Below, piece by piece: positions 36,701 to 42,700 of a stretch of DNA of 64,000 bases (positions within the stretch are counted from its first letter, which is position 1; every line of letters begins with the position of its first letter). Position numbers: made by a program. This DNA comes from Candidatus Ryanbacteria bacterium CG10_big_fil_rev_8_21_14_0_10_43_42 (GTDB lineage: Bacteria; Patescibacteriota; Minisyncoccia; Ryanbacterales; 2-02-FULL-48-12). The DNA is taken from positions 83,108-147,107 of the forward strand of contig PFEF01000005.1 of the NCBI GenBank assembly GCA_002793915.1. The letters run 5' to 3'.

Positions 36701-39700
36701 CAGTATGCTTGGCTGGCAACCGCGCTTTACGTTTGATCAGGGTCTTCAAAATACGATTGCGTGGTACAAGGAATTTTTAAATTAGAGTAGAATAGAAATA
36801 TGACGAAAGGAAAAAAAGAACGTGTACTTATAACGGGGGCTACCGGTTTTGTCGGTGCGAATCTAGTGCGCCGATTGGTTTCGCGTGATGCAGACGTACA
36901 TATCATTGTGCGTGACGGATCAGATCTATGGCGCATCCGTTCGATTCTTCCAAGTATTACGGTGCATCGAGCAAATCTTATCGATGGGGACGCTATAATG
37001 TCTACTGTTCAGAATGCGTGCCCTCATATCGTTTATCATGCAGCGGCCCACGGACTATTTTTAAAGCAAAAAGAAGCTGATCAGATGATAATTTCGAATA
37101 TATTGGGAACGGTTAATCTTTTTGAAGCCCTTAAACATGTTGGTTCAGCAAATTGTATTGTAAATATAGGGAGTATAGCGGAATATGACCCTAATGAATC
37201 ACGGGTAGGAGAGAATTCGCTTCTGCAGCCGGCTAATGTGTACGGAGTTTCCAAAGCTTCTCAGAGCTTGTTTGCCCAGTATTATGCACGATATCAAAAA
37301 ATGCCTATTGTTATTGTGCGTCCGTCTTTATTATACGGGCCATATGAAGAATCACGGCGATTAGTGCCGGCATCTATTCTCGCCCATTTGTGCGAGATAC
37401 CTTTGAATCTGGCATCGCCAAAATCACGGAAAGATTTTCTATTTGTGGAAGATGCACTTGATGCATTTGAGCGCGTGCCGATATGTAATATTATGCCCGG
37501 AGAAATTATTAATATTGGAGCAGGAAAGGATTATTCTATTCAGGATGTTGTGCTTGCGGTGCAGAGGATAACGGGCGTACAGGTTCCGTTTCAATGGGGC
37601 ATGCTTGGGGAACGATGGTGGGACTCGGTGCAGAAACATGTCTATGATGTGTCGAATGCAAAAAAATTATTAGACTGGAAAGCATCACACACGCTTGAGG
37701 AAGGGTTGTCTCAAACAATTGAATGGTTTCGAGAAAATCATATAGAATATCCGTATAAAAAATAGGATGAGCCAGTATCTTACACATAAGCGAATATCAG
37801 TTGTTATTGCGTGTTATAATGAATCAGAGAATATTCTTGCTATGCATGAACGGCTTTGTCGTGCGTTCGAGTACATAACGCCGAATCGGGAAATTATCTA
37901 TGTTGATAATGCAAGTATTGATAATTCGATGGAATTATATAAAAAACTTTGCGAAAAGGATGCTATGGTATCGGTAATTCTTATGGCTCGTAATTTTGGC
38001 AATTCCGACACTTCTTATACGGCAGGTACGGAATATGCATCGGGTGATGCGGTGGTTTGGATAGACGGGGATATTCAGGATCCGCCGGAGTTAATCCCTG
38101 AATTTACAAAAAAATGGCTTGAAGGGTATGATGTTGTGTATGGGGTGCGAAGTAAGCGTAAAGTAGGGTTTTTTCTTGGTAAGGCATACAATGCATTTTA
38201 CAAATTATTTAATCGATATTCCTACATAAAAATGCCATTGTATGCAGGAGATTTTTGCCTTATCGATAGAAAAATAGCCACTATATTAAATTCGTTTCCG
38301 GAACGTGACCGTTTTTTGCGCGGACTTCGCGCTTGGGTGGGATTTCGCCAGACGGGCATTGAATATATCCGGGAAGAGCGCACAGGGGGGCGTACGACGC
38401 AGAACCTAGGTAGGTATTTTTATGCAGCTAAAAAAGGCATTATTTCATTTTCTTATGCGCCTCTTACGCTTATTTCCAATATTGCATTAGTTGCTATGGC
38501 GCTTTCGCTTGTTGCCTTACTAGCATTTCCTTTGCTTGCTATATTCTATCCGGCTCCGCGCGGATTCCTGACACTTTTGGTTACCGTGTTATTTTTAGGG
38601 AGTGTGCAATTTTTTATTCTAGCTATTTTGGGTGAGTATCTTGGTCGTGTATTTGAAGAAGTAAAGCAACGTCCGAGATATATTATTCGTGAGATCCTTA
38701 ATAATCGTCAAGTACAAAGTAAATAATAGATATAATTTATAAAGAATATAATATGAAAGTCCCCTATGCAAAATCGGTACATGGCAAACCAGAAATAGAC
38801 GCGGTAGTATGTGTATTAAAAGGCAACACTGCTCTTGGCGCGTATACGCATGCATTTGAAGACAAGATCGCAAAACTTTTCGGGAAAAAGTACGGCATTA
38901 TGGTAAATTCCGGCTCATCCGCGAATTTATTGGCGGTAGAGTTTATGGATTTACCGAAAGGTTCCGAGGTAATAACGCCGCTTCTCACGTTTGCTACCGT
39001 GGTAGCACCCCTCGTACAAAAGGGGCTCATTCCCGTATTCGTAGATGTGGAGCCGGGCACCTATCTTATTAATATCGACCAGGTAGAGCGCGCTATTACT
39101 AAAAAGACGCGCGCGTTGTTCATCCCGTCTCTTCTTGGCAATGTGCCGGATCTCCATCGTCTTCGCCGCATTGCGAATAAACATAATTTGATATTAGTGG
39201 AAGATTCATGTGATACGCTTGGCGCCACGCTCGGAAAAAAACCTACCGGCATTCATTCGCATATCACCACCACGAGTTTTTACGGATCACATATTATTAA
39301 CGGTGCGGGCGGAGGCGGAATGGTTATGGTAAACGATCGTGTGTGGCGGGATCGGGCAATTGTTTTTCGCGGGTGGGGACGCAGTTCGTCTCTTTTTGGA
39401 GAAAAAAAGGAATCAGAAGATATAAGAAAACGGTTTAATGTATCGTTGGGAAATATAACATATGACACTAAGTTTATATTTGGTGAAATGGGCTATAATT
39501 TCCTTCCTTTAGAAGTAAGTGCCGCTTTTGCGCTTGAACAATTAAAACGTTTGAAAGATTTCTCCCGCTTACGTAATGATCACTATGCGCGCCTCCGAAA
39601 ATTCTTTACCGGATACGAGCACTGTTTTACTTTGCCGGAAACGACTCCGGATGTGCGTACAAATTGGTTGGCGTTCCCCCTTACCATAAAAAAAGGCACC

Positions 39701-42700
39701 CCGTTCACTCGGCGTGATATTACAACTCACCTAGAGAAAAACGGCATACAGACACGCCCAATATTTACCGGTAATATTTTGATGCATCCGGGGTTTAAGA
39801 ACATACCCCACAAAAAAGCTGAAAAGGCATATCCCGTTACGGAGCATATTATGAAGAATGCATTTTTAGTGGGATGTCATCAGGGACTTACCGATAAGGA
39901 GCTTGCATATATGGAAAAAACATTTCAAGCGTTTTTAAGGAGATATGAGTGAAAAAATCGATAAGAAAATTTCGGTAGTGATTCCTTGTTATAATGAAGA
40001 ATCAAATCTTCCTGAACTTTATACGCGGGTGACGGAAGTTCTTGCTTCTCTTGCTGTACAGTATGAGATCATTTTTACCGATAATAAAAGCACTGATACT
40101 ACGCGAAAGCTTTTGCGTGATTTAGCGGAGAGAGATAAGCATGTAAAGGTGCTTTTTTTTGCGCGTAATTTTGGAAACTCCCAATATGGATATTCCGCCG
40201 GTAGCGCATATGCAACGGGAGACGTTGTTATTTGGATGGAGGCTGATCTTCAGGACCCACCGGAAGTAATCAGAGAATTTATAAAGAAATGGCAAGAAGG
40301 GTTTCAGATTGTCTATGGCGTGCGGTCACAAACAGAAGGTTCATTTTTTTCACAATTATTACGACATGCATTTTATAAAGTTTTTAAAAAATTGTCATAT
40401 CTTGATATTCCCGTAGACGCAGGGGATTTTTCGCTACTGGACCGCAAGGTTATAGATATATTTAATACCATGCCGGAGCGCTCGCGACTTGTGCGCGGTA
40501 TGCGTGCATGGATTGGGTTTCAGTGTGCGGGTGTTGCATATAAGCGTAAAAAACGTGCGGGGGGAATGACGTCAAATCCGAATTTTATAAAAAACCTTTG
40601 GTGGGCAAAAAAATTGATATTTTCTTTTTCCGAAACGCCGCTCACTTTTATAACAAACATTACTCTCTGGCTTGTTATAATGATACCTTTTTTCATTATC
40701 TTTATGGTTTTGCTAGTATATATTGAAATTATTTCTTGGATTATGGCATTTGCGTTCATTGTAATTATGGTTATTTTGACACTACAAACTATCGCATTAT
40801 CATTTTTAGGTGAATCAATGAATATTATGTTTGAAGAAGTAAAACAACGACCACTATATGTTATTGAAGAGAAAATAAACTTTTGATTAATCATGCCTCA
40901 TGTAATTTTACGAAGATCTTACTTATTTTATGGAAGAGGAATAATTATTTATTTCTTGTGAATATTTCGAATGTATTCATTTGCGAATATGAGTAGAAAT
41001 ATGCTACCTTTTCAGTGAAAAAACAATAAAAATTAAGCAATAATATAACAAGAGTCATTAAAAACATGAGCTCGAAAAGAGTAAAATGTGGTATCATTGG
41101 AACAGGTAATATCGGTATGGATCTGTTGTTTAAGGTGCAACGATCAGAGTTTTTGGAGTGTAGTATTTTTGTAGGGCGCAATATGGAATCGAAAGGAATT
41201 CGAAAAGCGGAAGAAATGGGTATTAGAACTTCCACTGATTCTATTCGGGCAATTCTTAATGAGCCGGATATTTGCGAAGTAGTTTTCGATGCAACTTCAG
41301 CAAGAGATCATATGGTGCATGCGCCACTCCTTTCAAAACTGAGTATGTTTGTCATCGATCTAACACCATCGCGATTTGGTAAAATGTGTATTCCTGTTAT
41401 GGATCTCGAAAACGGTTTGAGTTCCCAAAATATTAATATGGTAACATGTGGCGGTCAGGCCATAGCACCTATAGCAAAGGTGTTAATGGAAATACATCCG
41501 GAAATAAAGTATATAGAAGTTGTTGCAACAATTTCTTCAAAATCGGCTGGTCTTGGTACTCGAGCAAATATAGATGAATATACACAGACAACTAAAGATG
41601 CGATTGAGTATTATTCAGGGGTACCTCGCGCAAAAGCTATAATTATTTTAAATCCCGCAGAGCCACCGATTCGAATGCATAACACGATATATGTCGAAAT
41701 TGATAATCCAAAACTGGAAGAAATTAAACATAGAGTTACGGAGGTTGCTTCTCGTATAAAAAAATATGTATCAGGATATGTTATTGCTTTGGAGCCGACT
41801 TATGAGAATGGACGTCTTACTATAATGATAGAAGTTGAAGGTCGGGGAGATTATTTGCCACCATATTCCGGAAATTTAGATATTATAACTTCTGCAGCGG
41901 TTCAGGTTGCTGAGGAACACGCGAGAAAGAAATATGCATGTATATGAAAAATCCACGCTTTTTTGACTCAACGTTACGGGACGGGTCGCATGCGGTGCGG
42001 CATCAAATTAGCGTTGCGACAATTAAAGATTACTGTGAAATAATTGATGGATCAGGTATATATGTGGTTATTGTAGGGCATGGTAACGGTCTGGGTGCCT
42101 CTACTTTGCAGGTTGGTCGATCTCTTCACTCTGATTCAGAGATAATTTCGACAGCTCGTGATGCTCTTCATAGCACAAAACTCGGTGTGTTTATGATTCC
42201 TGGATTTGGGACAATAAAGGATGATCTGGCTCCTGCGCTGGATGCCGGAGTCGATTTGGTCTGTATTGGCGTTCATTGCACTGAAGCCGATGTGACTCAG
42301 CAATATGTTGAATATGTGAATAGTAGAGGAAAGGAAGCCATTGGCGTACTTATGATGTATCATAGAGCGTCAAAAGAGCGGTTGCTGGAAGAAGCACAAA
42401 AGATGCAGCAATATGGTGCGCATGGCGTGCTACTGATGGATTCTGCTGGTTCGTCTACTGCCGATTTGGTAAGGCAAACAATCGAATATCTTGTTCGTAA
42501 TCTACAAATTCCCGTGGGATTCCATGGGCATAATAATCTGGGTATGGCGGTGGCAAATTCGTACTATGCCTTAAAGTCGGGTGCGGCGTTTATTGATGGT
42601 ACTACGCTGGGGTTTGGGGCTGGTGCGGGGAATTGTCAGCTTGATGCCTTAATTGCATTATTACAAAAGAATAAGATAGATGTCGGTGTTTCATTATATA

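Follow-up and report, generated by a model that had tools for sequence, protein, structure and literature searches.

A probable CDP-4-keto-6-deoxy-D-glucose 3-dehydratase of the E1 lineage without the iron-sulfur site, encoded in a Ryanbacteria sugar gene cluster

In a 64,000-nucleotide stretch (the window) of contig PFEF01000005.1 from Candidatus Ryanbacteria bacterium CG10_big_fil_rev_8_21_14_0_10_43_42, a sequence-only reading had pointed to an open reading frame (ORF) of 399 aa at 38753-39952 as a 3-dehydratase with His in place of the Schiff-base Lys. The ORF is present as claimed, and Pfam assigned its product (the target) to the DegT family (PF01041, DegT_DnrJ_EryC1; 242.7 bits), that is, to the fold-type I enzymes that use pyridoxamine or pyridoxal 5′-phosphate (PMP/PLP). 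An identical protein has been deposited from Candidatus Ryanbacteria, a lineage of the Candidate Phyla Radiation (CPR; Patescibacteria), under the misnomer "NarL family transcriptional regulator." Our analysis indicates that the target is probably a cytidine diphosphate (CDP)-4-keto-6-deoxy-D-glucose 3-dehydratase that descends from the E1 lineage, has no Fe-S cluster, and would use a cofactor cycle of the ColD type. The features within the gene are as follows.

38753..39952, + strand: target, predicted CDP-4-keto-6-deoxy-D-glucose 3-dehydratase, a DegT-fold, His-type, Cys-free E1 homologue of 399 aa
39209..39211, + strand: codon of Cys153, the sole target Cys on an E1 ligand position (C193), by alignment
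39290..39292, + strand: codon of His180, at the Schiff-base Lys position (equivalent to E1 His220 and ColD His188), by alignment to E1
39374..39436, + strand: loop W208-F228 (WGRSSSLFGEKKESEDIRKRF), free of Cys, in place of the E1 Fe-S loop WGRDCYCAPGCDNTCKKRF, by alignment

Among solved structures, Yersinia E1 (3bcx) was the closest to the target by sequence (230 bits, E = 2.7e-67), followed by E. coli ColD (172 bits, 1.8e-49), and PDB entry 9wvy, a "putative NDP-4-keto-6-deoxyglucose-3-dehydratase," matched at 130 bits. A Foldseek search was made with the AlphaFold model of the target, which had a predicted local distance difference test (pLDDT) score of 85.7 and low confidence in the active-site loops, including residues 212-222 of the Fe-S-loop replacement. 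It returned E1 at the top (3bcx; template modeling [TM] score, 0.84; 34% identity) and ColD next (TM, 0.80; 30%). The motif TSFYGSHIING is present and aligned with SFYPAHHITMG of wild-type E1, thus placing His180 on E1 His220, and the H220K crystal variant 3bb8, which reads SFYPAKHITMG, fixed this equivalence unambiguously. A sugar aminotransferase carries a catalytic Lys for the internal aldimine at this position, where the target has His.

The same His180 was invariant in 120/120 of the closest relatives (61-100% identity to the target), 80/80 genomic homologues, and 50/50 diverse representatives; an exhaustive search of representatives clustered at 50% identity yielded 150 proteins, of which essentially all had His at the Lys position. 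The genomic homologues were taken from a scan of one genome per species that found relatives at no fewer than 597 loci, and all counts out of 80 refer to the best 80 of these at least 597 loci, with 51-70% identity. Hosts were found in many CPR lineages, in Woesearchaeota and Nitrosopelagicus, and among cultured Alphaproteobacteria, for example, Ensifer adhaerens, Ruegeria, Sphingomonas, Novosphingobium, and Kaistia. Paralogues of the Lys type at these loci shared only 24-28% identity. The clade also has an invariant glycine-rich motif, H-I-I-N-G-A-G-G-G-G-M (residues 183-190 in the window protein, 39299-39322), at a place where E1, ColD, and aminotransferases have G/M-E-G-G, so that the canonical Glu is gone and one residue is inserted; alphaproteobacterial members carry the version NGAGNGG. 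Public names for the family conflict, ranging from "NarL family transcriptional regulator" through "NDP-hexose 3,4-dehydratase" to "CDP-6-deoxy-D-xylo-4-hexulose-3-dehydrase." Fusion proteins of 600-890 aa are common in it (for instance, P0121, P0122, P0124, P0129, P0148, and P0175), and in these the dehydratase domain may lie at the N or the C terminus.

The [2Fe-2S] ligands of E1, which we take to be C193, C251, C253, and C261 (C-x57-C-x-C-x7-C), were reportedly identified by Agnihotri et al. in 2004, and these positions agree with the Cys residues kept in all E1-type sequences examined here. The target contains exactly four Cys, C20, C153, C291, and C375. That they are scattered and form no Fe-S cluster motif had been noted from the sequence, and alignment with E1 and ColD bore this out, leaving just C153 on a ligand position, one at which ColD likewise has a Cys. 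The E1 segment GRDCYCAPGCDNTCKKRF pairs with GRSSSLFGEKKESEDIRKRF of the target, in which S, G, and I stand at the positions of C251, C253, and C261. These three E1-specific positions were S, G, and L/I/V in 120/120 closest relatives and held Cys in 0/80 genomic homologues, and the alignment of the 120 closest relatives contained no alternative conserved Cys pattern. The equivalent of C153 was Ala in 35/80 genomic homologues, so all four ligands are gone there. Among the cluster representatives, the nearest ~45 (at least ~40% identity) had Cys-free loops, and E1-type WGRDCxC...C loops appeared solely at 39% identity or less. Because Cys is missing from the three loop positions and the C153 equivalent is even Ala in 35/80, an E1-kind [2Fe-2S] site is, judged from the alignments, excluded for the clade. 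The lost cluster ligands are the decisive feature and carry the argument for E3-independence.

Operons with a genuine Fe-S-type enzyme gave further information. A Methylovirgula plasmid (L091) has the order rfbF-rfbG-SDR-RfbH-TktN-TktC-GT2-GtrA (SDR, short-chain dehydrogenase/reductase; TktN-TktC, split transketolase) and a Desulfobaculum plasmid (L094) has RfbH-TktN-TktC, in both cases with a Cys-rich RfbH, whereas three CPR loci (L001, L003, and L013) read SDR-TktN-TktC-homologue-GT2 and have the Cys-free type in the RfbH slot. At a metagenomic locus (L086), an Fe-S-type enzyme lies between an rfbG gene and a GT2 gene that are 59% and 49% identical to those of the window, and rfbF there is 53% identical. 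Since the two enzyme types are interchangeable in one pathway slot, these loci indicate that both catalyze the same net reaction, and they are the strongest functional clue that we obtained. On a separate point, the Fe-S-type RfbH with split transketolase on the two plasmids suggests that transketolase-branched CDP-sugars are probably made outside CPR too.

The surroundings of the target in the window are the following.

29710..31083, + strand: PMT_2 GT-C glycosyltransferase (Pfam domain), likely the final transferase of a polyprenyl-phosphate-linked sugar
31080..31862, + strand: rfbF-like glucose-1-phosphate cytidylyltransferase (TIGR02623, 296.2 bits, full length; cutoff, 300.25)
31859..32902, − strand: Old Yellow Enzyme-type (OYE) flavin oxidoreductase (domain search)
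from 33040, − strand: RmlD-like SDR (domain search)
34262..34993: NUDIX protein of 243 aa, single domain, between rfbF and rfbG; too short for an EvaA-type 2,3-dehydratase
35778..36785, + strand: rfbG-like nucleoside diphosphate (NDP)-glucose 4,6-dehydratase; top model, CDP-glucose 4,6-dehydratase (TIGR02622, 203 bits, cutoff 278; versus 179 for the deoxythymidine diphosphate [dTDP] type)
36800..37765, + strand: SDR of the epimerase/reductase family, candidate sugar ketoreductase
37767..38726, + strand: GT2 polyprenyl-phosphate glycosyltransferase, PgfS/ArnC-like
39945..40886, + strand: second GT2 polyprenyl-phosphate glycosyltransferase, overlapping the target stop by 8 nt at its start
41066..41947, + strand: acetylating acetaldehyde dehydrogenase, ErwJ/DmpF-like (TIGR03215, 375 bits, above the cutoff of 282)
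41938..42948, + strand: 4-hydroxy-2-oxovalerate aldolase, ErwI/DmpG-like (TIGR03217, 358 bits, above the cutoff of 286)
42945..44738, + strand: YerE/ErwE-like thiamine diphosphate (ThDP)-dependent carboligase (top PDB match 8rph, 379 bits)
44744..45622, + strand: SDR, candidate side-chain or C-4 reductase (ErwF/YerF-like role), assigned from position alone

The rfbF and rfbG genes had been described as flanking the target; they are indeed near it, but both lie upstream rather than one on either side. The top match of the ThDP enzyme, 8rph, is JanthE, a YerE-like carboligase, whereas acetolactate synthases reached 243 bits or less; by the NCBIfam cutoffs, below which it scores, the protein is not an acetolactate synthase. 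Deoxygenation at C-3 of the RfbG product yields the acceptor of the erwiniose pathway; within the cluster, no gene but the target is a candidate for it. The whole 19-kb block is syntenic in a second Ryanbacteria genome (L006).

Several details of this block deserve mention. The OYE and RmlD-like genes (31859-33942, − strand) interrupt the cluster in divergent orientation between rfbF and the NUDIX gene; both accompany family members in L006 and L085, and L037 has OYE alone. The NUDIX gene occupies the same place in other CPR operons (L003 and L013) and was counted at 11 loci in the neighbor census. Between it and rfbG, the interval 35008-35764 holds two overlapping opposite-strand candidate ORFs of 160 and 201 aa, the latter without a Pfam match. 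Directly downstream of the block, 45632-48344 encodes the beta and alpha subunits of a succinyl-CoA-ligase-like enzyme, the former with a citrate-binding domain, together with a citryl-CoA lyase (NF004869, 272 bits against a cutoff of 212). These genes resemble a citryl-CoA synthetase/lyase system, could feed acetyl-CoA to the acetaldehyde dehydrogenase, and are syntenic at the second Ryanbacteria locus.

Across the family, genes within 10 kb of the 80 homologues were rfbG-like at 62/80 loci and rfbF-like at 56/80, with SDR at 46/80 and GT2 at 35/80. A probe search found a YerE-like ThDP enzyme at 16/80; split transketolase occurred at 8/80 and the DmpFG pair at 3/80, and a DmpF-DmpG-ThDP trio adjoins a family member in L054 and L077. 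Unbiased neighbor clustering added GT4, PMT_2 GT-C, GtrA, and an RmlC-like epimerase, as well as a sugar C-methyltransferase (Methyltransf_13/14; 16 loci), whose gene comes after the homologue in Alphaproteobacteria; over the same 80 loci the clustering showed no recurrent ferredoxin, flavodoxin, or ferredoxin-NADP reductase (FNR) family. In Roseibium aggregatum, the homologue (53% identity to the target) has rfbF and rfbG directly upstream, and the operon in the Prokaryotic Genome Annotation Pipeline (PGAP) annotation reads GtrA, GT39, rfbF, rfbG, "DegT family aminotransferase," S-adenosylmethionine (SAM) methyltransferase, oxidoreductase, and GT2; the GT-C gene at 29710 in the window stands in the same arrangement. 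The recurrent partners, namely, ThDP enzyme, transketolase, C-methyltransferase, and SDR, need a 4-keto group and an activated C-3; therefore, a 3-dehydratase fits this context and an aminotransferase is disfavored.

The known 3-dehydratases share a first half-reaction, in which a PMP ketimine forms, His mediates C4′ deprotonation, and the 3-OH is lost, but differ in how the resulting glucoseen adduct is resolved (PMC8987622). E1 and SpnQ have their own [2Fe-2S] cluster plus a reductase, and electrons reach the PMP adduct through the cluster of the enzyme (PMC8987622), whereas in ColD and in the guanosine diphosphate (GDP)-heptose enzymes of C. jejuni the adduct is hydrolyzed, ammonia is freed, and PMP is regenerated from glutamate (PMC8987622, PMC10440746). 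We assign the ColD-type cycle to the target because, among known chemistries, a cluster-free enzyme has just the hydrolytic option. In the pathway that we propose, RfbF and RfbG would supply CDP-4-keto-6-deoxy-D-glucose, with which the target would form a PMP ketimine at C-4; His180 would then take the C4′ proton and the 3-OH would leave. The Δ3,4-glucoseen adduct, with no redox center at hand, would undergo hydrolysis and tautomerization to give CDP-4-keto-3,6-dideoxy-D-glucose and ammonia, and an amino acid (glutamate in ColD) would transaminate the PLP left behind back to PMP. Later, the YerE/ErwE-like ThDP enzyme would add a branch at C-4, using 4-hydroxy-2-oxopentanoate from the adjacent aldolase and acetaldehyde dehydrogenase as the donor. 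Finally, after reduction of the sugar, the flanking GT2 enzymes would load it onto polyprenyl phosphate, and the GT-C enzyme would deliver it.

The window had been said to hold no E3-like gene, and this proved correct: no Fer2, FAD_binding_6, or NAD_binding_1 domain occurred in any substantial ORF of the 64 kb, and neither tblastn with genuine Salmonella E3 nor a motif screen found anything in the window, L001, L003, or the 80 loci (best E-value, 1.1), while both methods recovered the Salmonella E3 positive control. What this absence means is another matter. A first control for E3 context, P0172, lay on a short contig and showed no E3, and of nine loci with a genuine Cys-rich RfbH, only two (Salmonella and Sphingomonas hengshuiensis) had an E3 homologue within 10 kb, leaving 7/9 without. 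Because just 2/9 genuine RfbH loci have one so close, the absence of a neighboring E3 is weak evidence of E3-independence, and we lowered the weight of E3 adjacency as a discriminator, although it had been taken as a sign in the sequence-only reading. The ~1.3-kb gene that follows the alphaproteobacterial homologues was considered as an E3 and turned out to be the Methyltransf_13/14 sugar C-methyltransferase. The earlier suggestion that the enzyme is ColD-like, needs no E3, and acts on a CDP-sugar is nevertheless favored by the clade-wide loss of the ligands, the link to rfbF and rfbG, and the erwiniose-type quartet; the ColD-type cycle itself we infer.

The same control loci leave some room for an E1/SpnQ-like reaction, in which the glucoseen intermediate would be reduced through a distant E3 or a general ferredoxin or flavodoxin despite the missing cysteines, for an adjacent E3 is missing from 7/9 true Fe-S-type loci as well, and SpnQ draws on general reductases of the cell (PMC8987622), so that a distant partner is compatible with the context. 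We consider this very unlikely, given that every clade member lacks three of the four ligands and 35/80 lack all of them, that no other conserved Cys pattern and no redox protein recurrent among the neighbors was seen, and that the known electron transfer to the PMP adduct runs through the enzyme's own cluster (PMC8987622). A dehydration followed by transfer of the unsaturated or enamine intermediate to a partner, for example, the OYE at 31859-32902 or the C-C-forming enzyme, is hardly more credible. The OYE in the cluster, also seen near family members in L006, L037, and L085, and the clade's own conserved acidic loop and glycine-rich motif are in keeping with such a hand-over, but ColD chemistry works without a reductase (PMC8987622, PMC10440746), and with an OYE near family members in 3/80 loci only, we discarded it as a general reductase partner. 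There is an equally slim chance that the clade forms a third mechanistic class, in which the Ser/Glu-rich loop and NGAGGGG replace the Fe-S site and the glucoseen is resolved by neither E3-type electron transfer nor plain ColD-type hydrolysis, passing, for example, to OYE or to a C-C- or C-methyl-forming partner.

The target might instead be no dehydratase but a PMP-dependent 4-aminotransferase, or have another DegT-type activity, on a CDP-4-keto sugar. The RefSeq name of the family, "DegT/DnrJ/EryC1/StrS family aminotransferase," points this way, as do the transamination by SpnQ when its reductase is absent (PMC8987622) and the divergence of the clade from both characterized dehydratase groups. 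His replaces the Schiff-base Lys across the clade, however, and E1 and ColD, which have this His, do not transaminate (PMC8987622); moreover, the ThDP enzyme, transketolase, C-methyltransferase, and ketoreductases need the 4-keto group that transamination removes, and Fe-S-type RfbH takes the same operon slot. We therefore regard this activity as unlikely. An alternative raised earlier, that the target is a ColD orthologue that turns GDP-4-keto-6-deoxymannose from a gmd product at 19.8 kb into a colitose-type sugar, gains something from the Fe-S-free nature that the target shares with ColD and from the gmd itself, which is genuine (19831..20829; TIGR01472, 553 bits). Yet this gmd lies 19 kb upstream and is directly followed, at 20810, by an SDR resembling GDP-L-fucose synthase (fcl-like); the family is linked to rfbF/rfbG, not to gmd; and the target is nearer E1 than ColD by score (230 versus 172 bits) and by fold (TM, 0.84 versus 0.80), outside the "HGW.R" group. 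Gene context and similarity thus led us to reject the GDP/colitose reading, whose probability we put close to nil.

The CDP-4-keto-6-deoxy-D-glucose 3-dehydratase with a ColD-type cycle, which we prefer, has its own difficulties, and the following points count against it. The amino donor and the hydrolytic resolution we infer just from the absent redox center. The window rfbF-like gene scores slightly, and the rfbG-like gene clearly, below the family cutoffs, and the target reaches 336.8 bits on the NCBIfam RfbH equivalog (NF011936), under the cutoff of 423. The clade has swapped the canonical GEGG for NGAGGGG. In the source genome, the reductase search spanned the 64-kb window of a ~524-kb contig. 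Furthermore, the clade falls outside the ColD group by sequence (34% identity and another loop type), and ColD-like chemistry would thus be convergent or ancestral rather than inherited.

The window has further glycan genes. At 15215-21751 and 25257-27068, the gmd and fcl-like pair (GDP-6-deoxyhexose pathway) has around it genes for a carbamoyltransferase, several methyltransferases, a sulfotransferase, and a protein of the sulfatase family, which hint at sulfated, methylated, or carbamoylated glycans. Three separate pairs of GT2 and PMT_2 (GT-C) genes (558-2752, 21729-24484, and 28905-31083; the middle GT2 fused to a methyltransferase domain) suggest several polyprenyl-phosphate-sugar/GT-C surface glycosylation modules within 64 kb. 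At 49857-54304, two tandem proteins of ~740 aa combine a Wzy_C (O-antigen ligase-like) domain with C-terminal tetratricopeptide (TPR) repeats and adjoin an opposite-strand Bac_transf priming transferase; the same pair is kept in a Parcubacteria locus (L001).

If the proposed reaction is right, CPR bacteria, archaea, and Alphaproteobacteria would have a cheaper way, independent of oxygen and iron, to make 3,6-dideoxy, C-methyl, and 4-C-branched sugars, and genes now labeled "aminotransferase" or "NarL family regulator" would need re-annotation. It would also provide a single-protein catalyst for CDP-4-keto-3,6-dideoxyglucose, the hard-to-obtain acceptor of YerE/ErwE-type carboligases, and it predicts an erwiniose-like branched sugar on the Ryanbacteria cell surface. 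Roseibium, Ensifer, and Ruegeria are cultured hosts in which the prediction is directly testable; R. aggregatum carries the homologue WP_229005991.

Textbook CDP-3,6-dideoxyhexose synthesis requires E1 and E3, both of them iron-sulfur proteins, and passes through a radical, and the cluster-free 3-dehydratases so far described act, to our knowledge, on GDP-sugars only. Only E1, ColD, and SpnQ appear as characterized 3-dehydratases in a review of nucleotide-sugar dehydratases from 2022 (PMC8987622); to these, later work adds the GDP-heptose C3-dehydratases of C. jejuni (PMC10440746). Our literature search found no characterized CDP-type Fe-S-free 3-dehydratase, although precedent in subscription journals is possible. 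The proposed chemistry thus has a precedent in ColD, whereas its lineage, its nucleotide, and its wide distribution are without one.

A quick neighbor-joining tree (Kimura distances, rooted on Lys-type paralogues), indicative only because clade bootstraps were about 50% and saturated outgroup distances gave a numerical warning, placed the ColD-type enzymes ("HGW.R" loop) near the outgroup, followed by the Cys-rich E1 type and by a Cys-free "WGR..S...SE(D)I..RF" group of 50 members including the target (bootstrap, 48/100). The ColD-type group stood apart from the target, with a rough placement (bootstrap, 55/100). Mean identity of the target was 51% to the core clade, 36% to E1-type, 34% to ColD-type, and 26% to Lys-type enzymes. 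Because of this placement, these identities, and the score under the RfbH equivalog cutoff, the target is, on present sequence criteria, an E1 relative outside the E1 and ColD families as now defined.

E1 (RfbH/DdhC/AscC, CDP-6-deoxy-L-threo-D-glycero-4-hexulose-3-dehydrase; 3bcx) is the closest known enzyme in sequence and fold. It shares with the target the His at the Lys position, the WGR...RF frame around the loop, and the operon place after rfbF and rfbG, and the two types are interchangeable in related operons. Unlike E1, the target has no C-x-C-x7-C loop, and hence no [2Fe-2S] cluster, and no counterpart of the ~33-residue N-terminal extension, and it should not use the radical, E3-dependent reduction. 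ColD (2gms and 3gr9) and the C. jejuni HS:5/HS:11 GDP-heptose C3-dehydratases resemble the target in being His-type and Fe-S-free, of similar length, and without the N-terminal extension, and theirs is the only known cofactor cycle that fits a cluster-free enzyme, with glutamate-driven PMP regeneration and hydrolytic release. ColD differs, however, in its ~30-34% identity to the target and its short "HGW.R" loop, and these enzymes work in GDP-mannose or GDP-heptose pathways, whereas the target family belongs to a CDP-glucose pathway. SpnQ and the actinomycete NDP-hexose 3,4-dehydratases are also DegT dehydratases of the His type whose clusters contain no dedicated E3, but SpnQ carries a [2Fe-2S] and acts on a thymidine diphosphate (TDP)-2,6-dideoxy sugar after a Nudix-type 2,3-dehydratase; a domain search of the window ORFs found no two-domain NDP-hexose 2,3-dehydratase, just the 243-aa single NUDIX protein.

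The gene arrangement finds its nearest parallel in the erwiniose cluster of Pectobacterium atrosepticum, where ErwJ, ErwI, ErwE, and ErwF accompany ddh genes (PMC9306805), as the quartet at 41066-45622 stands beside CDP-hexose genes here. In the pathway proposed there, the aldolase makes 4-hydroxy-2-oxopentanoate, which the ThDP enzyme adds to CDP-4-keto-3,6-dideoxy-D-glucose (PMC9306805); from the window quartet, a CPR bacterium is accordingly expected to make an erwiniose-like 4-C-(hydroxyacyl)-3,6-dideoxyhexose. In the published scheme, the classical CDP-4-keto-3,6-dideoxyglucose genes are assumed, whereas in the window a Cys-free enzyme occupies the 3-deoxygenation slot, the sugar apparently travels by way of polyprenyl-phosphate GT2 and GT-C enzymes, and the organism belongs to the CPR.

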